Made by a program: the position numbers and the translations under genes | Origin: Candidatus Omnitrophota bacterium | Lineage (GTDB): Bacteria > Omnitrophota > Omnitrophia > Omnitrophales > Aquincolibacteriaceae | Direction of reading: 5' to 3' | Length of the DNA: 64,000 nucleotides | Assembly: GCA_043803685.1 (NCBI GenBank) | Contig: JAZDJU010000040.1 | Location: forward strand, 1-64,000 | Notes under the pieces: generated by a model | Database searches by the model: none | The model's input: the letters and a program-made list of their open reading frames with translations, nothing else | Told to the model about the DNA's origin: nothing | In this document: positions 2,100 through 51,964 of the stretch, piece by piece | Layout: each line of letters begins with the position of its first letter | How positions within the stretch are numbered: position 1 is the first letter of the stretch

Positions 2100-2183
2100 T
2101 AAGTGATAGATTAAAGCGTTTTCAGTGTTCCATGCTTTCATTTTTTGGAGTCCGAGTGATTTTCTAACCTACGGAGGTTCTCT

Positions 2184-3083
2184 ATGAAGTGGTTGATGAA
2201 ACTGATCATGCTGATCGTTGTCGTGTTGGTCGTGTTAGTGCTTGCGCGCAATGTCGTGGTGAAAGCGGCCGCGGAGAGCGGCGTGCGGGCCGTCACGGGG
2301 ATGCCCCTCAGTATCGGGAAGTTCGACCTCAATTTGTCGAACACATTCGTGGATATCGAAGCCCTCGTGGTCAAAAACCCGACGGGTTTTCACGATACGG
2401 CACTGGTCGATATCCCCAAGATCCTCGTCGACTACAATCTTTCCGATATTCTCAAAGGGAACGTTCATCTTGAAAGTATCGAATTCGATATGAAACAGTT
2501 CACGGTCGTGAAGAACGAAAAGGGCGAGCTCAATCTGGACCGGTTGAAAGCGCTCCAGGGGACCCAGAAGGCGCCTACCCAGCCCCAAAAACAGGAAGAG
2601 CCGAAAGCTCCCGCCAAGCCCATGCCGATCCAGATCGATATGATGCGCCTGAAGATCGGCAAAGTCGTTTTTGTGGATTATTCCAGCGGCAAGCCTTCGA
2701 CCAAGGAATTCCGCATCAATCTCGATCAAAGCTATCAGAACATCACGGACCTCAATAGCGTGGTGCGTTTGATCGTCCTGAAGGCCATGATGAGTTCCGG
2801 GATCTCGAATCTTGTGAATTTCGATCTGGGAGGTCTTGAGGGAACCCTGACGGGAGCCTTCAGCGCTTCCACCCAACTGGCGGCCCAGGCTGCGGCAAAA
2901 AGTCTGGATACGCTTAAGACCGCCGCAACGAATCCAACCGCGATCCCGGGACAGGTCGGGGGTGTTCTTAAGGATACGACCGGCGCTGTCGGAAGTACCA
3001 CTAAGGAAGTGGCCGGTGGCGTTAAGACCGCCGCGAGCAGTCTTAAGAATAAACTAAAAATTTTCGGGAGTAGTAATTCTTGA
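2184..3083 (+). CDS. AsmA-family-like membrane-anchored protein
   Basis: N-terminal TM anchor, VVKNPTGF motif, NEKGELNL; low-complexity A/T/G C-terminal tail; SD GGAGG upstream. Confidence 0.7.
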   Translation: MKWLMKLIMLIVVVLVVLVLARNVVVKAAAESGVRAVTGMPLSIGKFDLNLSNTFVDIEALVVKNPTGFHDTALVDIPKILVDYNLSDILKGNVHLESIEFDMKQFTVVKNEKGELNLDRLKALQGTQKAPTQPQKQEEPKAPAKPMPIQIDMMRLKIGKVVFVDYSSGKPSTKEFRINLDQSYQNITDLNSVVRLIVLKAMMSSGISNLVNFDLGGLEGTLTGAFSASTQLAAQAAAKSLDTLKTAATNPTAIPGQVGGVLKDTTGAVGSTTKEVAGGVKTAASSLKNKLKIFGSSNS

Positions 3084-3117
3084 TCTCCTCCAAAGCTGAG
3101 GCGAAAGGGAACCTTTC

Positions 3118-4341
3118 GTGAGCCGAGAAGAAGAACTCAAGGTACTTCTTTCCATTACGCATCAGATCAATGAAGGTCTGACGGTCGAGGAAGTCCTGGA
3201 TTACGCCTACAAGACCCTGCAGGCCATCATTCCTTACGACCGGATCGGATTTTCCCTTCTGGAGGAGAACAATACGGTCCTGCGTTCCTATTGGGCCTGC
3301 TCAAAAATGTCAGAGGTTCGGATAGGGAAAAATTACTCCGCAGGGATGAAAGGTAGCAGTCTTGAAAAAGTCCTTCAAACGCAAGAGCCGCGTATCCTGA
3401 ACGATCTCGAGACTTATCTCAGGGACCATCCGGACTCGAAGTCCACGAGAGATATTGTGGCAGAGGGAATGCGTTCGAGTTTGACCTGCCCCCTGATCGT
3501 CTCCGGAAAGCCCATGGGGTTTCTCTTTTTTTCAAGTCAGAAGACGCATCAATATCAAAACGCGCACGTAGAACTTTTTCAGGAGATCGCGGAACAGCTT
3601 GCCATGACCCTTGAAAAAAGCCGGCTTTATGAACAGGTGGTCCGGTTCAACGATATGAAGAACAAGTTCCTCGGCATGGCGGCGCATGACCTTCGTAGCC
3701 CCATCGCGGTCATCAAAGGCTACGCGGATCTTTTCACAGAAGGTTTTTTGGGGACCCTGGATGCTTCCCAGAAAGAACCGATACGGGTCATGTCCGGGAT
3801 CTGCGACAGAATGCTTGTTTTGATCAATGATCTGTTGGACGTCAGCGCGATCGAATCGGGCCATTTGGCGATGGATATGCGGGAGGTGGATCTGGAGGGC
3901 TATTTGACGGAGGCCCACCGGAATAACGCGCTTATGGCCAAAGCGAAGTCGATCGAGCTCATGCTGGATGTTCCGAAGGCCCTTCCGAGGATCTGGATGG
4001 ATCCCAATCGCATCGATCAAGTGATCAATAATCTCATCGCCAATGCCATTAAATTTTCAGAACCGCGGAGCCGGATCGTTCTCCGGGCGGTGCTTGTAGA
4101 GCGCGCGGTCGCGATCTCGGTCATCGACCAGGGGCAGGGCATTCCCGACGAAGAGATCCCCAAGATGTTCCAGTATTTTGGGAAGACGAAGGTTCTGCCG
4201 ACCGGGGGCGAGAAAAGCACAGGGCTCGGGCTCGCGATCGCTAAGCGTTTGGTGGAAGCCCACCGCGGGAAGATCAGCGTTGAAAGCCAACCGGGCCAAG
4301 GATCCACCTTTACCTTCACACTTCCTCTGAAGCTCTCCTGA
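3118..4341 (+). CDS. GAF-domain sensor histidine kinase (cytoplasmic, orphan)
   Basis: GAF ([19 protein letters not shown]), H-box AAHDLRSP, N-box [10 protein letters not shown]1 DQGQGI, G2 GLGLAI. Confidence 0.93.
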
Positions 4342-12156: not shown

Positions 12157-14205
12157 ATGTCCAACACCTATCGTGATAAGCCCAAAAAGCGTCCGAAGAA
12201 AGTTCACGCGCCGCTCCCTCCCAGGATCGAGAAAAAAGAGGAACGCAGGATCTGGGTCGGCGATGAGGCCATCATTGAGAAACATTTTCTCCACCTGACA
12301 CGTCTTCTCCGCGATGAAGAGCGCGAGGAACAGAACCGCTTCAAAACGGATTTCCTGGACCGGAAGCCTGAAGAACGGGAAAAAAAAGGCAAGGCGATCT
12401 TCCGGCTCGATCTTCTGGAAACTCACTACAATCCGTCGGGTCAGAAACTCTTGACCTTCGCGCTCCAAAGCAGTCGTCCCTTGCCGCGTTATTCCCTGAG
12501 CCCCGGCGATGTCGTTTCGCTTTCCGGCTTCCAGACGCCTCCGGAAGACTGCCCCGCAGGCACCGTCTATGAGAAGGACCGTTTCCGCATCACGGTCGCT
12601 TTTAGCGGCAGGATCCCGGGTTGGGTCGAGAGTGAAAAAAGTTATCAGCTGAGCCTCTCCGAGAACCGCACCACGTATCAGCGGATGTATGAAGCCCTTC
12701 AGATGACGCGTACTGCGGAACATTCCAGAGTCTCCCGGCTGAGGGACATCAGTCTGGGACTTAAAAAACCTCTTCTGGGAGATCCGATCCCTGAGGGAGT
12801 GGCCCAGAGTTTTGACCCGACGCTGAATGATGATCAGAAAAAGGCTGTCCGGATGGCGCTTGAGACTGAGGATATTCTTCTCATTCACGGGCCTCCGGGA
12901 ACAGGGAAGACGAGGGTGTTGACCGAGATCATTCATCAGGTTTATCAAAAGGGCCAAACCGTTCTTGTCTCCGCCCCGAGCAATGCCGCGTGTGATCATC
13001 TGGTGGAGTGTCTCGTGAAAAAAAGGATTCCCGTGACGCGTCTCGGTCATCCAGCGAGGATCACTGAGCGGGTTCGTGAGCATACCTTGAGCTATAAACT
13101 TGCCGCGCATCCTTACGCGAAAATGATCGATGAGCATGAGGCAAGGCTCGAGCAGTTGTCCCGGCAAAAGGAGCGGCGGCAGGACCGGCGCGTCATGTCG
13201 TGGGAGGAGCGCAACGAAATGCGCGACGAAGTCCACCGGCTTCGCGATGATATTCGCGATCTCAAAACGCAGATCTTCAAGCAGGTCTGGAATGCTTCGG
13301 ATGTCGTTGTCGCGACGCACACGGTGTGCGGCGATCCGCTTATTCGCGCGAAGGCTTTTGATTGGGTGATCCTGGATGAGGCGACGCAGGGGATCGAGCC
13401 CGCGACATGGATCCCGATGCGCCATGGGGGGAAGGTCATTCTCGCGGGGGACCATTGCCAGCTCCCGCCGACGGTCTTTCGGTCCAAGCCGGGCGAGCGG
13501 GGCTTGGGGTTCACGCTTTTTGAGCGATTGCACGACGTGCTCGACGCGAAGGCCAGGGTGCGGTTGGAGAGGCAATACCGGATGCACGGGAGCATCATGG
13601 ATTTTTCTTCGCGGGAATTTTATGACGGCGCGCTTGTCGCAGATCCGTCGGTCGTGAGTCACACACTGAAAGACCTTCCGAAGATCAAAACCGAGGGATT
13701 GGACGGGACTCCCGTTGTTTTTCTCGACACCGCGGGACTCGGATATGAAGAGGAAATCGAGGATGGGACCGAAAGCCGCTACAATTCTCAAGAGGCAAAA
13801 CTTGTTGTAAAAGAACTGGAGTGTTTGCTCCGGGCCGGGGTTTCTCCCGACGAGATCGCGATCATCAGTCCTTACAGCGCTCAGGTAAAACTTTTGACAG
13901 GTATGATCCTTGGCGAAAAAGGAGATCCGGGCGACCTGGCAGCGCTTGAGATCGATAGCGTGGACGCGTTCCAGGGCCGGGAAAAAGAAGCGGTGATCGT
14001 TTCGCTCGTGCGGTCGAACCGTGAAGGACAGCTTGGGTTTCTCACCGATACGCGGCGGATGAACGTTGCTATGACGCGCGCGAAGCGAAAGCTCATCATG
14101 ATCGGAGACAGTGCGACGCTCTCCAACCACACCTTTTTCGAAGATCTGCTCCGCTACGTCGAATCCGTGGACGGTTATCGCAGTGCTTGGGAAGATACAA
14201 AATAG
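12157..14205 (+). CDS. IGHMBP2/UPF1-like superfamily 1 helicase (DNA2/NAM7)
   Basis: GPPGTGKT, APSNAACD, DEATQ, GDHCQLPP, QYRM, SPYSAQ, VDAFQGREK, RRMNVAMTRA. Confidence 0.93.
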   Translation: MSNTYRDKPKKRPKKVHAPLPPRIEKKEERRIWVGDEAIIEKHFLHLTRLLRDEEREEQNRFKTDFLDRKPEEREKKGKAIFRLDLLETHYNPSGQKLLTFALQSSRPLPRYSLSPGDVVSLSGFQTPPEDCPAGTVYEKDRFRITVAFSGRIPGWVESEKSYQLSLSENRTTYQRMYEALQMTRTAEHSRVSRLRDISLGLKKPLLGDPIPEGVAQSFDPTLNDDQKKAVRMALETEDILLIHGPPGTGKTRVLTEIIHQVYQKGQTVLVSAPSNAACDHLVECLVKKRIPVTRLGHPARITERVREHTLSYKLAAHPYAKMIDEHEARLEQLSRQKERRQDRRVMSWEERNEMRDEVHRLRDDIRDLKTQIFKQVWNASDVVVATHTVCGDPLIRAKAFDWVILDEATQGIEPATWIPMRHGGKVILAGDHCQLPPTVFRSKPGERGLGFTLFERLHDVLDAKARVRLERQYRMHGSIMDFSSREFYDGALVADPSVVSHTLKDLPKIKTEGLDGTPVVFLDTAGLGYEEEIEDGTESRYNSQEAKLVVKELECLLRAGVSPDEIAIISPYSAQVKLLTGMILGEKGDPGDLAALEIDSVDAFQGREKEAVIVSLVRSNREGQLGFLTDTRRMNVAMTRAKRKLIMIGDSATLSNHTFFEDLLRYVESVDGYRSAWEDTK

Positions 14206-48745: not shown

Positions 48746-49624
48746 ATGAAAAAAATCACCCTTCAGAGTCCCGCGAAACTCAATCTCCACCTGCGCATTC
48801 TTGGGAAACAGCCGGACGGGTATCACAAGCTTTTGACGCTTTTCCACCGCATTTCGCTCGTGGACACGATCGTGATCCGCAAACGTTCCGCGGGTTTCAA
48901 GCTCACGACGAACATTCCTTCGCTTGAGACCGGGGAAGGGAACCTCATTACCAAAGCCTACCGCGCGCTTCAGAAGAGATTCCCGGAGTTGGGCGGGGTT
49001 TCTGTGCGACTTACCAAGCGTATTCCTCTGGGGGCGGGGCTCGGCGGCGGTTCCAGCAATGCGGCGTTCTTTCTCTTGGGGATGAAAAGACTTTTCCGGC
49101 TCAAGCTTTCCACGAAGGAGCTCTTGGCCATGGGGAAGAAGCTCGGGGCCGATGTCCCGTTCTTCCTTCTCGAGGCACGGCAGGCGTTGGCCTGGGGGAT
49201 CGGGGACAAGCTCGAAAAGACGCCGTGCCGTGCACGTCTCGGATTTCTCTTACTTGTAACAGACCAGGGGCTGAATACGCGAAAAGTCTATCAAACGCTT
49301 GCCTGGAGCGGGCGGCCCCTTTCCTTGACAAAGGAAAGGCGTATTGCTAAAATCCTGCGCTCTTTTCTAGATAGAAAGAGGATCCGGGAAGCATCGACGC
49401 TCGCGCAAAATGACCTGGAAACACCGGCCTTTCGCTTAATGCCGTCCGTTCCCAAAGCCATGTCGGTCCTCAAAGACCACGGCGCGCCTTTCGTTCTCAT
49501 GAGTGGAAGCGGGGCCACGGTCTTCGTAGCATTCTCCAGCCGGAAAAAAGCTTTAGATTTATCGAAGAGATTGAAAGAAGTTCCCTTTCCTTTTCGCAAG
49601 GTGATTTGTCACTCATACGAGTAG
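48746..49624 (+). CDS. ispE: 4-diphosphocytidyl-2-C-methyl-D-erythritol kinase
   Basis: PAKLNL.L, DGYH, KRIP.GAGLGGGSS.AA, GADVPF, NDLE, MSGSG. Confidence 0.96.
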   Translation: MKKITLQSPAKLNLHLRILGKQPDGYHKLLTLFHRISLVDTIVIRKRSAGFKLTTNIPSLETGEGNLITKAYRALQKRFPELGGVSVRLTKRIPLGAGLGGGSSNAAFFLLGMKRLFRLKLSTKELLAMGKKLGADVPFFLLEARQALAWGIGDKLEKTPCRARLGFLLLVTDQGLNTRKVYQTLAWSGRPLSLTKERRIAKILRSFLDRKRIREASTLAQNDLETPAFRLMPSVPKAMSVLKDHGAPFVLMSGSGATVFVAFSSRKKALDLSKRLKEVPFPFRKVICHSYE

Positions 49625-49818
49625 TCCCAATACTGATCAAATGAAGCGAATCGGTCCCAATACCGATCAATCAAAGCGTAGCTGAGATTGGGGCCGTCCA
49701 AACTTCCATCGTGGAAAAGAATAAAAAGTTTGGGCGGAAATTGGGGCAATCCTTTCTCAGGCTTTTGATTCAAAGCACGGCTGGAAGAAGATCTTTAAGG
49801 ACGGTTTTGTAAGTTTAT

Positions 49819-49927
49819 TGCCCGGTGGTGAAATGGTATCACACTGCCCTTTTCCGCCTGAGGCGGATTCGTCCGCGAGGCGAATCCCCCGATGGACGGA
49901 TTCGCCTCTGGCGAAGGAGGCAAGATT
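49819..49927 (+). pseudogene. 5' part of tRNA-Gln with 63-bp insertion in the anticodon
   Basis: TGCCCGG-TG-GTGAAATGGTATCAC-A-CTGCC-CTTT [49853-49915 insert] GGA-GGCAA-GATT, truncated before T arm. Confidence 0.85.
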
Positions 49928-49932
49928 TTTAA

Positions 49933-50169
49933 ATGTGGGTCTATGTTTTGGAAAGTCAAAAAGACAACCGTCATTACGTTGGCAGCGGTGAAGACGTCGA
50001 AGAAAGATTGCGGCGGCACAATTTAGGCGATTATCGCTATACTAAGGGTCATCGTCCGTGGATTGCGATTTACCGGGAGTTTTGCAAGTCTCGCTCGAAG
50101 GCTGTTAAGCGCGAACGGTTTTTGAAGTCAGGTGTCGGGCGAAAGTATTTGAAAACAGTTTTACAGTAG
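49933..50169 (+). CDS. small GIY-YIG nuclease family protein
   Basis: VYVL...YVGS..D.E.RL..HN.G..RYTK..RPW...E....S.A..RE..LKS. Confidence 0.93.
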   Translation: MWVYVLESQKDNRHYVGSGEDVEERLRRHNLGDYRYTKGHRPWIAIYREFCKSRSKAVKRERFLKSGVGRKYLKTVLQ

Positions 50170-50182
50170 CTTGATCAGTTAG

Positions 50183-50253
50183 TGCCCCGTGGTGAAATGG
50201 TATCACACTGCCCTTTGGAGGCAAGGTTCCTGGTTCGAGCCCAGGCGGGGCAG
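50183..50253 (+). tRNA. tRNA-Gln(TTG)
   Basis: cloverleaf: acceptor TGCCCCG/CGGGGCA, D arm GTGA/TCAC, loop CT-TTG-GA, T arm CCTGG-TTCGAGC-CCAGG; no encoded CCA. Confidence 0.92.
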
Positions 50254-50263
50254 ATTTGAGCAT

Positions 50264-50776
50264 ATGATGGAAAAATTAATGATAGAAATATTAGAAAAGT
50301 TTCAAGGCGCCTTTTTAGTTTTACTGAGCTCTCTGTTGAGTTTCCTGTTTGCGTTATGGGCATTCAATCATCAGGAAGCGAGAAGAGAAGGAAAAAACGA
50401 AAAAGATGTTTTAAAGAATTTTCTTAGCGAGATTAAATTAAATGAAATTCGTTGTGGAATGATGGTCGATTCCGAATCATTTAATTTATTCGATATCGAT
50501 GTTCTTAACAGGTTTAAGAATAGCGCGCAATTTTTGAGCAAAGCCATTGCCAAATATGTAATTTTCATTGGACTCGTTAATAATAGCGTTGCTGATTTTT
50601 TGGATTTCGAGCGATTTTATACTGGTGATGCAAAAAACGGGACTCAAGAAAACGAGAAAGCGTCGAATTCTAAAAGAATCAGACTGCTTGAAAGCCTGAA
50701 AAGTTTCCAAGAAACTTTGGCTATGGCTAAGGCTGATGTCGCGGCTATTTTAGAAAAGGGTAAGATGGGTAAATAA
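50264..50776 (+). CDS. hypothetical AT-rich protein with N-terminal TM
   Basis: open frame, TM then E...N motif; composition differs from host genes. Confidence 0.65.
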   Translation: MMEKLMIEILEKFQGAFLVLLSSLLSFLFALWAFNHQEARREGKNEKDVLKNFLSEIKLNEIRCGMMVDSESFNLFDIDVLNRFKNSAQFLSKAIAKYVIFIGLVNNSVADFLDFERFYTGDAKNGTQENEKASNSKRIRLLESLKSFQETLAMAKADVAAILEKGKMGK

Positions 50777-50778
50777 TT

Positions 50779-50888
50779 ACTGCCCTTTTCCGCCTGAGGC
50801 GGATTCGTCCGCGAGGCGAATCCCCCGATGGACGGATTCGCCTCTGGCGAAGGAGACAAGATTCCTGGTTCGAGTCCAGGCCGGGCAG
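50779..50888 (+). pseudogene. 3' part of tRNA-Gln with the same 63-bp anticodon insertion
   Basis: ACTGCCCTTT [50789-50851 insert] GGAGACAAGATT-CCTGG-TTCGAGT-CCAGG-CCGGGCA-G; acceptor strand pairs with 49819-49825. Confidence 0.85.
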
Positions 50889-51052
50889 TTGTTCTAGTGA
50901 ACAACTACTATGCCGTGAGAGTTCAGGGATAACTCTCTACGGCATGGCAGTTTTGCCAGTGCAAAACTACTACGCTGTGACGGCTCAATGAAAGCCGTCT
51001 ACCGCGTCGCCGTCTCTGTCGCAGTTTTGTAAATGAGGATGTCTGAACTTAC

Positions 51053-51964
51053 ATGAAAAACGGAATGAAGGATAAAACGAAGGAAACGATCGCGGCGTAC
51101 GGCTTTCTCATGCCGAACCTGCTCGGGTTCCTTCTGTTCACGTCGATCCCGGTGCTGGCGTCTATGGGACTCAGTTTCGTGAAGTGGGACCTTTTGTCGG
51201 ACGGTCCGCAGTTCACGGGGCTTGCGAACTTTATCGAGCTCGTCAAAGACCCGTTCTTCGGGAAGTACTGCTGGAACACGATGGTCCTGATGGTGGCCAT
51301 TCCCATCAGTATGACCGGGTCGCTTCTCTTGGCGATCGCGCTCAACCAGAAGCTTAAAGGTACGGTCGTTTTCAGGACGCTCTATTTTCTCCCGACCATC
51401 TGCTCGGGCGTTGCGATCTTCATGCTCTGGCGTTTGATCTATAATCCCAATTTTGGCCTCTTGAATGGGATGATCGCAAATTTTGGGGATTTGCTGGGGC
51501 TGCATTTGACGGGACCGAACTGGCTAACCGACGAGGCGTGGGCCAAACCGTCTTTTATTATCATGAGTGTGTGGCAATCGATCGGCGGATATAACATGAT
51601 CCTTTATCTCGCGGCGTTGCAGGGGGTGCCGCGGGACCTTTATGACGCCGCGGAAGTGGACGGCGCGAACAACTGGCAGAAGTTCTGGAACGTGACCTGG
51701 CCGCAGATCTCACCGACGACCTTTTTTATCGCGACCATGAGCTTGATCGGCGGGTTCCAGGCGGGGTTCGACCAGGCGTACATCATGACGGGCGGCGGGC
51801 CGAACGGGTCCACGACGACGATCATTTATTACATTTTCAACAACGCGTTCGAATGGTACCGCATGGGATACGCGGCCGCTATTTCGTGGGTCCTGTTCCT
51901 GATCATTTTTGCCGCGACGGTCGTGAAATGGCGTTTTTTCGGCAAGTCGGTCCATTACACCTGA
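51053..51964 (+). CDS. carbohydrate ABC transporter permease (MalF/UgpA type)
   Basis: GLANF, FRTLYFLP, EAA-like LYDAAEVDGA, TGGGP. Confidence 0.92.
   Translation: MKNGMKDKTKETIAAYGFLMPNLLGFLLFTSIPVLASMGLSFVKWDLLSDGPQFTGLANFIELVKDPFFGKYCWNTMVLMVAIPISMTGSLLLAIALNQKLKGTVVFRTLYFLPTICSGVAIFMLWRLIYNPNFGLLNGMIANFGDLLGLHLTGPNWLTDEAWAKPSFIIMSVWQSIGGYNMILYLAALQGVPRDLYDAAEVDGANNWQKFWNVTWPQISPTTFFIATMSLIGGFQAGFDQAYIMTGGGPNGSTTTIIYYIFNNAFEWYRMGYAAAISWVLFLIIFAATVVKWRFFGKSVHYT

Follow-up and report, generated by a model that had tools for sequence, protein, structure and literature searches.

A small GIY-YIG nuclease gene and a complete tRNA-Gln(UUG) gene nested within a split tRNA-Gln gene of a Candidatus Omnitrophota bacterium

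The cassette within the split tRNA-Gln gene

A tRNA-Gln gene broken in its anticodon loop, with a small GIY-YIG nuclease gene and a second, complete tRNA-Gln gene between its halves, is carried by a metagenome-assembled genome (MAG) of a Candidatus Omnitrophota bacterium (2.89 Mb in 133 contigs, 91% complete, 6.6% contamination). The stretch of DNA analysed, positions 1–64,000 of contig C40 of this MAG, is referred to as the window. The original prediction, made from the letters alone, had described a small GIY-YIG gene without an integrase inside a split tRNA-Gln gene, and sequence inspection, ARAGORN, Pfam and a repeat comparison recovered in place every feature that it had named.

All parts of the cassette lie on the plus strand. 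It opens with an outer tRNA-Gln fragment (nt 1–34, 49819–49852) that ends in the anticodon loop with CCCTTT, followed by the left copy of a 63-nt composite double hairpin, ins63 (49853–49915, TCCGCC...GGCGAA), and by a remnant of tRNA nt 35–46, GGAGGCAAGATT (49916–49927). The single-domain nuclease gene (49933–50169, 78 aa, PF01541) comes next, and the complete inner tRNA-Gln(UUG) gene, detected by ARAGORN and scoring 57.2 bits with the Rfam tRNA model, follows at 50183–50253. An open reading frame of 170 aa, ORF2 (50264–50776), is AT-rich, with a GC content of 0.31–0.37 against roughly 0.5–0.6 on both flanks. Beyond it lie a remnant of tRNA nt 25–34, ACTGCCCTTT (50779–50788), the right copy of ins63 (50789–50851), identical to the left one, and the outer fragment nt 35–71 (50852–50888), after which comes the native downstream flank, homologous to that of the relatives G011 and G018. 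No tyrosine or serine recombinase is present, the nuclease and ORF2 being the only open reading frames between the repeats and the neighbours being housekeeping genes, and no open reading frame or Pfam match within the element corresponds to an HUH (Y1) transposase. Over the region, Rfam recognized nothing besides the inner tRNA at the family gathering score.

The outer pieces and the inner gene represent two alleles, as had been proposed from their acceptor stems. The outer halves, TGCCCGG and CCGGGCA, pair with each other (G6 with C66), while the inner gene has TGCCCCG and CGGGGCA (C6:G66); the two are called o-type and i-type here. Compared with the matching parts of the inner gene, the left outer fragment is 97% identical and the right one 89% identical, and the right fragment carries a G-to-A change at 50857, in the anticodon stem, relative to the left copy and to relatives. 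Both alleles are resident in the genus: the left fragment is 100% identical to the resident tRNA of G011, G005, G010 and G007, where the o-type gene is the sole one, and the inner gene is 100% identical to that of G004, G014, G001 and G008, where the i-type gene stands alone. The inner gene is the only tRNA that ARAGORN detects in the window and the only tRNA-Gln(TTG) that it detects in the MAG.

The resident o-type gene is broken between nt 34 and 35 (CUUU|GGA) and survives as two overlapping remnants, nt 1–46 and nt 25–71, each with ins63 exactly at the break. The 85-bp direct repeats on which the original prediction was built (49843–49927 and 50779–50863) exist, with one mismatch (99% identity) and a spacing of 936, but they are not a plain target duplication, as each is a composite of tRNA nt 25–34, the 63-nt hairpin insert and tRNA nt 35–46, that is, 22 nt of tRNA overlap plus the hairpin. 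In full length, the repeat has only these two copies in the MAG (E 1e-38 and 2e-37).

Residues 1–70 of the nuclease match PF01541 (E 2e-14); the protein ends 8 residues past this catalytic domain, and a separate DNA-binding domain is absent. Y4, Y15, G17, R25, H29 and E61 are invariant among ten homologues. The ratio of non-synonymous to synonymous substitutions (dN/dS) among seven intact Gln-type copies is 0.05–0.12, with dS around 1 or saturated, which indicates that the nuclease is maintained and that the copies are not recent transfers. Its nearest solved structures in a PDB profile search are the UPF0213 proteins 1zg2 (E 4e-16) and 1ywl, then Slx1, and homing-endonuclease models matched weakly (TIGR01453, 18.5 bits with a cut-off of 56; PHROGs, E 0.01–0.02; PADLOC HEase, E 4e-4). 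The GGAGG of the nt 35–46 remnant sits 12 nt before the nuclease ATG and is likely its ribosome-binding site, and the gene is probably transcribed from the old tRNA promoter. At locus L088, the junction of the window, GGAGGCAAGATTTTTAAATG, occurs next to a differently typed (i-type) 5' fragment; the remnant and its GGAGG therefore travel with the nuclease gene.

The insert ins63 consists of a first hairpin, TCCGCC-TGA-GGCGGA, and a second, TTCG..CGAA, built around an 11-bp palindrome; as single-stranded DNA it folds with -22.2 kcal/mol (z -4.6). In a relative, L047, this place is taken by a bare form of 30 nt, TCCGCC-CGA-GGCGGA followed by TTCGCC-TTT-GGCGAA, and the 63-nt version therefore looks like a double hairpin in which a further hairpin is nested. 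All of 15 distinct copies from relatives start with TCCGCC and end with GGCGAA, and their differences are confined to the loops. Hairpins of the forms TCCGCC-N3-GGCGGA and TTCGCC-N3-GGCGAA stand on both sides of the nuclease gene and are rare in this genome (12 sites). As well, ins63 is found at the anticodon-loop position of tRNA-Arg 3' fragments and, inverted, within the T-loop of a tRNA-Arg fragment, and an ins63-type hairpin lies in the D-loop of a tRNA-Gln(CTG) fragment. At locus L032 (G017:C162, 517–579), the insert lies in frame, as 21 codons, in an open frame of more than 367 codons on the opposite strand, and its flanks resemble the tRNA-Gln anticodon arm, which suggests either an ectopic insertion at a look-alike site or co-conversion of the flanks. 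A blastn search of the MAG returned no orthologue of this interrupted G017 gene.

A resemblance of ins63 and its tRNA flanks (49850–49919, 50786–50855 and L026 1546–1615) to the Actinomyces-1 RNA (RF02928) was also seen, at a sub-threshold 23–28 bits against a gathering score of 39.1. The consensus of that RNA likewise has ..CCGCC at its start and GGCGAAGGAG at its end, and the motif might be the same kind of hairpin insert; a literature search on it returned nothing about its context.

ORF2 is a putative cargo or partner gene. It begins, as read from the sequence, with an N-terminal hydrophobic helix; it has no match in Pfam, NCBIfam or PADLOC, weak matches to PHROGs families of unknown function (E 0.003–0.03), clusters of hypothetical proteins only in the Atlas, no relative in the metagenome scan, and an AlphaFold model whose mean pLDDT of 55.6 is too low for searching by fold. 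Homologues with 37% and 46% identity are found in 2 of the 95 other genomes of the order, both directly 3' of a tRNA-Gln that itself follows a GIY-YIG gene, and judging from these ORF2 is a real, sporadic gene. One of the two, G092, has ispE, then tRNA nt 1–34, a reversed hairpin complex and nt 35–46, the nuclease gene, tRNA-Gln(TTG) and the ORF2 homologue. The other, G052, has a 5' fragment of nt 1–13, the nuclease gene, tRNA-Gln(CTG), the ORF2 homologue and then a 3' fragment (nt 8–72) composed of nt 8–17, an ins63-like hairpin and nt 18–72. The module of nuclease, tRNA-Gln and ORF2 is thus present in three genera (window, G092 and G052), and its recurrence inside split tRNA-Gln genes is the best support for the complete tRNA being carried along.

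The site 3' of this tRNA is a variable cargo spot, occupied by ORF2 in the window and by a 31-nt spacer in G016 and G018. Two further loci, L025 (G012, 2158–3718) and L086 (440–1145), were seen to hold AT-rich cargo with a DUF6036-type nucleotidyltransferase and a small downstream open reading frame, to which G012 adds a 241-aa membrane-like one.

Relatives of the locus and of the nuclease

Simple relatives have the order ispE–(spoVG-like gene)–tRNA-Gln–permease, in which the bracketed gene is one that we take to be spoVG-like. The empty allele that the original prediction had proposed to seek among relatives exists, G011, G010, G014 and G008 all reading spoVG-like gene, tRNA-Gln, permease, and occupied loci are those of the window, G012, G016, G018 and G022. 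G012 carries the unit of nt 1–34, ins63, nt 35–46 and nuclease gene twice, before a complete tRNA, and one nuclease copy, the third, has an in-frame stop. G016 and G018 have the nuclease gene, a complete i-type tRNA, the 31-nt spacer and a 3' piece made of GCCCTTT, a shorter form of the nt 25–34 remnant of the window, together with ins63 and nt 35–71; in G016 the unit of nuclease gene, tRNA and this 3' piece stands twice, with o-type sequence at the end. G022, which belongs to another genus, has the identical break point, and its duplication takes in 24 nt of the native upstream flank. The reverse combination of alleles, a complete o-type gene with an i-type 3' fragment, is found at L091.

The locus has been invaded more than once. 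A second nuclease subtype (53–54% identity) is inserted further 5' in G005 and G004, in the order nt 1–9, a 62-nt TCCGCC double hairpin, nt 10–16, the gene and the complete tRNA, and the window retains the 3'-end remnant of such an older type-2 GIY-YIG gene, with the spacer to the tRNA, at 49766–49814 on the plus strand, as aligned with the end of the intact gene upstream of tRNA-Gln in G005 and G004. The overlap between the two fragments varies from about 5 nt in G052 to 22 nt in the window and about 65 nt in G022, a variation that speaks against a cut of fixed stagger and in favour of repair by recombination or by an illegitimate route. In G001 (L037, about 1230–1510), a GIY-YIG gene of a third and more distant kind was noticed downstream of the i-type tRNA-Gln, ahead of the permease gene.

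Homologues of the nuclease were surveyed in one-genome-per-species contigs (33 loci) and in metagenomes (49 loci), with a few loci common to both sets (G012, G016, G018, L052/L099 and L058/L108). A tRNA gene lies within 700 nt of the nuclease homologue, always on the same strand, at 29 of the 33 genome loci, and a same-strand tRNA lies within 150 nt at 41 of the 49 metagenome loci; for the remaining eight, four contigs end less than 75 nt downstream and three have a tRNA at 176–386 nt. The association of small GIY-YIG homologues with tRNA genes that had been anticipated is hence supported. Fragments of the neighbouring tRNA accompany 27 of the 33 genome loci at E<0.05 (25 at E<1e-3), in two layouts, the nuclease gene lying either after a 5' fragment and before the complete tRNA or after the complete tRNA and before a 3' fragment, and several loci have fragments on both sides. 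Moreover, GC-rich perfect hairpins are about ninefold denser beside the gene than farther out (5.55 versus 0.63 per kb), and at least one is present at 65 of 80 loci.

Within the MAG itself, three of four small GIY-YIG paralogues adjoin tRNAs. One of them (G000:C104:5514–5900, minus strand, 42% identity) has on one side a 5' fragment of tRNA-Lys(CTT) with a 42-nt TCCGCC/CCCGCC double hairpin in its D-loop and on the other a complete tRNA-Lys that heads a Lys-Leu-Gly tRNA cluster. At G000:C129:10055–10504, GC-rich hairpins spanning about 150 nt come after tRNA-Gln(CTG), together with the fourth small GIY-YIG gene (31% identity).

In the nuclease tree, which was read leaving out one row in the wrong frame that stood alone on a long branch (L084), most of the well-supported clades keep to one tRNA type across phyla. 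They include a Gln-TTG clade of 8 rows (support 97/96), a Cys pair of Saccharimonadota and Portnoybacteria, a Gly pair of Chlorobiota and Ignavibacteriota, a Ser pair and a Pro-CGG clade. The Gln-TTG clade takes in a MAG labelled Gammaproteobacteria, in which a diverged tRNA-Gln is broken at the same CCTTT| position and the fragment, like its upstream flank, agrees with the local gene. The exception is a well-supported pair (97/94) that unites a tRNA-Leu locus with a tRNA-Arg locus. The phyla sampled comprise Omnitrophota, Patescibacteria, Planctomycetota, Bacteroidota, Ignavibacteriota and others.

Interpretation, known systems and rival explanations

The region is probably a selfish, homing-like, hairpin-tagged GIY-YIG cassette nested in the single tRNA-Gln(UUG) gene, and on our best reading it is a variant related to the free-standing GIY-YIG and Ssn-like selfish elements. 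What the locus adds to these is that the gene is broken in its anticodon loop and has kept both halves, that a whole tRNA of another allele replaces it, that a cargo gene recurs, and that the genus offers a series of occupied, empty and decayed states.

The small single-domain GIY-YIG proteins termed Ssn, flanked by hairpins, were described in the text of one study as hairpin-guided nucleases of single-stranded DNA that bind the flanking hairpin and cut a few nt upstream; SsnA of Neisseria meningitidis, for which Y6, Y17 and E64 are essential, acts at NTS/SRM hairpin repeats, and a host-level role in Neisseria transformation was given for the system (Chenal et al. 2025, PMC11893778). The protein of the window is likewise a single GIY-YIG domain, of 78 aa versus 94 aa in SsnA, and its Y4, Y15 and E61 are spaced like those three residues, the equivalence being one of position without a direct alignment. 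Its gene also stands between short GC-rich hairpins, a 'hairpin-gene-hairpin' layout that the available text of the same study compares with an insertion sequence (PMC11893778). The two differ in that the hairpin has hundreds of copies there and 12 sites in this genome, in that the nearest solved relatives here are UPF0213 proteins, and in that the word 'tRNA' does not occur in the main text of PMC11893778.

Another relevant enzyme is SegB, which T-even phages encode as a free-standing GIY-YIG homing endonuclease within their tRNA gene cluster and which, according to the accessible part of the report, cuts inside tRNA genes, cleaves double-stranded DNA in vitro and drives recombination-dependent tandem amplification of a nuclease-plus-tRNA segment (Chihara et al. 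2026, PMC13096335). Both have a GIY-YIG gene among tRNA genes, with strong statistical co-localisation with many isotypes, and the amplification is comparable to the tandem units in G012 and G016. SegB is phage-encoded, whereas the gene here is chromosomal, bacterial and only 78 aa long in product, and the accessible part of the report has SegB neither nested in a tRNA gene nor accompanied by hairpin tags or hairpin-interrupted tRNA fragments. Seg-type enzymes in general share with the window the GIY-YIG catalytic domain and the occurrence of occupied and empty alleles at a conserved target among close relatives. The 78-aa protein lacks a separate DNA-binding domain, whereas SegB is much larger and has a separate DNA-binding part.

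Integrase-borne tRNA islands and prophages resemble the locus in that a whole tRNA and a partial copy of it mark the two ends and cargo lies beside the tRNA, and the anticodon loop and T-loop are recognized as sublocations of such islands (Williams 2002 as cited in the consulted part of PMC9897764). Here, in contrast, there is no integrase or recombinase, the length is below 1 kb, hairpin inserts mark the break, and 5' fragments are as common as 3' fragments. The IS200/IS605 and REP/RAYT elements have short hairpins with conserved stems and variable loops, insert by short target words and nest, going by the available text of PMC11893778. They differ from the cassette, which has no HUH (Y1) transposase. 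To our knowledge, GIY-YIG enzymes hydrolyse DNA and do not join strands. In full-text literature searches, no account turned up of small GIY-YIG cassettes that sit inside tRNA genes of bacteria. In the part consulted of a paper on tRNA gene fragments, those derived from mobile elements were ascribed to integrating elements such as phages and integrative and conjugative elements, and 'GIY', 'endonuclease' and 'hairpin' have no occurrence in that paper.

The route by which the cassette would spread is put forward more tentatively than the cassette itself, and it could well have been another. The nuclease and its cognate hairpins might break the DNA of tRNA genes, as Ssn nucleases cut beside a hairpin in single-stranded DNA, and the break might be repaired by recombination with a cassette-bearing copy, the conserved tRNA sequence serving as homology arms, so that the cassette is copied in. 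Survivors would be only those outcomes that keep or bring an intact tRNA, by duplication or import, which would explain the partial duplications as well as the carried tRNA. The hairpins, probably binding sites of the enzyme, would spread independently into spare target loops and disable them, as they could not persist in a working tRNA gene, and the complete i-type tRNA-Gln(UUG) would now do the work of the resident gene. What the sequences themselves show is the anatomy, the occupied and empty loci of relatives, the association with tRNAs across phyla, purifying selection acting on the nuclease and the allele mismatch of inner gene and outer halves; how DNA is cut, how a target is recognized, by which route breaks are repaired and in which direction the cassette spreads are what we infer here.

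A bolder proposal, which we hold to be doubtful, is that of a 'tRNA-replacement homing element', a self-sufficient DNA of less than 1 kb that uses a 78-aa hairpin-guided nuclease and the tRNA as homology arms, destroys the resident tRNA gene, brings its own tRNA and cargo and leaves the wreck tagged with hairpins. If so, the host would depend on the tRNA of the element, and tRNA alleles would be swapped between species along with it. The addiction suggested in the original prediction stands in part. The inner gene is the sole tRNA-Gln(TTG) detected, tRNA-Gln(CTG) is unable to read CAA, and recombination between the 85-nt repeats would leave a hairpin-interrupted gene. Strict addiction, however, does not follow, since the genus includes relatives that lack the cassette and since recombination between the 34-nt or the 37-nt tRNA repeats would give a hybrid tRNA that is almost intact, with a single mismatched pair in the acceptor stem; dependence is therefore plausible and not strict.

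Several observations weigh against the reading as a selfish homing-like cassette. With dS near 1 and a DNA identity like that of the flanking genes, the nuclease copies fit long vertical residence as well as recent mobility, and its nearest solved relatives by profile search are the UPF0213 proteins. The degenerate SRM motif of the Ssn system has no match in 49500–51200 or in the whole window. The hairpin stems are almost invariant (19 of 25 pairs in ins63, with a covariation score no better than that of shuffles), so that covariation lends no support to the structure. Fragments are also common near the tRNAs of the MAG itself, even at a distance from GIY-YIG genes (9 of 45 tRNAs at E<1e-3, 18 of 45 at E<0.05), which makes fragments alone a weak marker and the nuclease–tRNA distance the stronger statistic. 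At locus L050, in a distant phylum, the local tRNA is matched by the 5' fragment as well as by the flank upstream of it, so the duplication there arose in place and import is not needed. Finally, the left and right halves of the architecture separate in relatives, and the 1-kb unit may be a composite of events.

That last point grows into a rival explanation in which no 1-kb unit moved: an upstream GIY-YIG cassette would have left the 5' fragment, an unrelated downstream cargo insertion the 3' fragment, and ins63 would have entered both spare loops independently, with the 85-bp repeat and the 936-bp period as by-products. The left-hand arrangement alone in G012, G022 and L088, the right-hand arrangement alone in G016, G018 and L091, the varying cargo after the tRNA (ORF2; the DUF6036 nucleotidyltransferase and open reading frames in G012 and L086; the spacer of G016 and G018) and the insertion of ins63 at other sites in both orientations are all consistent with this. 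We nevertheless find it unlikely, because the nuclease gene, tRNA-Gln and ORF2 occur together in three genera, in G052 between both outer fragments, because two o-type outer halves around a wholly i-type inner gene need an imported complete tRNA, and because the two 85-nt copies differ by a single base. As for the sub-kilobase selfish element of the original prediction, the module does recur, but the halves of the architecture also occur apart, and a single 936-bp unit is only one possible history. A domesticated host system seated at tRNA operons, for recombination or amplification of tRNA genes or for protection against tRNA-cleaving toxins or tRNA-targeting integrative elements, with the fragments as by-products, might account for the strong purifying selection and the deep divergence at a fixed locus; it also has parallels in phage SegB, which drives a useful amplification of tRNA genes from within tRNA clusters, and in the host-level role of Ssn in Neisseria. 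Such a system seems improbable in view of its patchy presence among close relatives, broken copies (the third of G012, with its in-frame stop, and that of L052, whose frame is disrupted), the invasion of the same tRNA at different positions by several unrelated subtypes, clades that span phyla, and the decayed older cassette upstream in the window.

An artefact of the metagenome bin, such as two strain alleles collapsed into one contig, is very improbable. The MAG has the contig number and contamination given above, and two tRNA alleles stand at one locus. No public run was found to contain this organism, the best share of sampled words being 0.07, and what four runs yielded came from relatives, with ins63 attached to other tRNAs or with the relatives' own alleles of the locus. 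Yet comparable nested layouts, joined at unique sequence, appear in assemblies made independently from other samples, the junctions to the nuclease gene and ORF2 are unique sequence, and an 85-nt repeat is within the word lengths usable by common short-read assemblers. It is scarcely credible, lastly, that the outer gene is still functional, with ins63 as an intron or the outer pieces joined in trans as a split tRNA. The insert does lie in the anticodon loop, it is strongly structured, and it is partly self-complementary, so that two copies could pair. The idea was rejected because Rfam intron and ribozyme families gave no match at E up to 10, the G-to-A change in the right-hand fragment breaks the stem, and the same hairpin is found in D- and T-loops of fragments, reversed, and inside a protein-coding frame; a group I intron is further disfavoured since the interval holds a complete tRNA and duplicated exon parts rather than separating contiguous exons. 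We know of no tRNA intron splice position at U35|G36.

If the selfish, hairpin-tagged cassette is the right reading, the tRNA genes of many uncultured bacteria would be open, besides integrase-borne islands, to a far smaller invader, a parasite whose only requirements are a nuclease of about 80 aa and a hairpin of 30–60 nt. It would offer a natural selfish life cycle and a natural target for hairpin-guided small GIY-YIG nucleases, and it would account for many of the "ghost" tRNA fragments and GC-rich hairpin islands by tRNA genes that confuse annotation. Functional tRNA alleles would then be horizontally replaceable along with a mobile element. Moreover, programmable cutters of single-stranded DNA could perhaps be drawn from the nuclease–hairpin pairs, which apparently vary with the target tRNA.

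Surroundings of the cassette and further observations

Around the cassette, the neighbouring genes encode TsaD, MgtC, HisG, a GHMP kinase (ispE-like), two ABC permeases and a GlmU-like protein. Upstream and outside the cassette lies rep130, a dispersed repeat of about 130 nt (49622–49754, with no strand assigned), at the position that the spoVG-like gene takes in relatives; it has 21 matches in the MAG and many copies across genomes of the genus, and it contains an internal 25-nt tandem (49624–49648 and 49654–49678). In most relatives the spoVG-like gene, of 102 aa, stands between ispE and tRNA-Gln (in G012 at L025:777–1082; the corresponding stretch here is 49625–49818), and a tblastn search found no copy of it in this 91%-complete MAG.

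A second insert family, of roughly 100–200 nt, was noticed just 3' of complete genes for tRNA-Leu, -Arg, -Gln and -Val, where it occupies the T-loop of duplicated tRNA 3' fragments. It has the form GAAGGGAGC..long hairpin..GCGGGTGG(C/T)CGACC..GGAGGCGCC, and it is located at G000:C104:5234–5400 and 13230–13370, L030 (G005) 1430–1620, L040 (G007) and L033 (G017:C167); Rfam gave no match to it at E up to 1. On the same contig of the MAG (G000:C104:15833–16230), the last 19–20 nt of tRNA-Phe(GAA) recur behind the gene as two tandem copies, each preceded by an inverted 13-nt piece of the T-arm.

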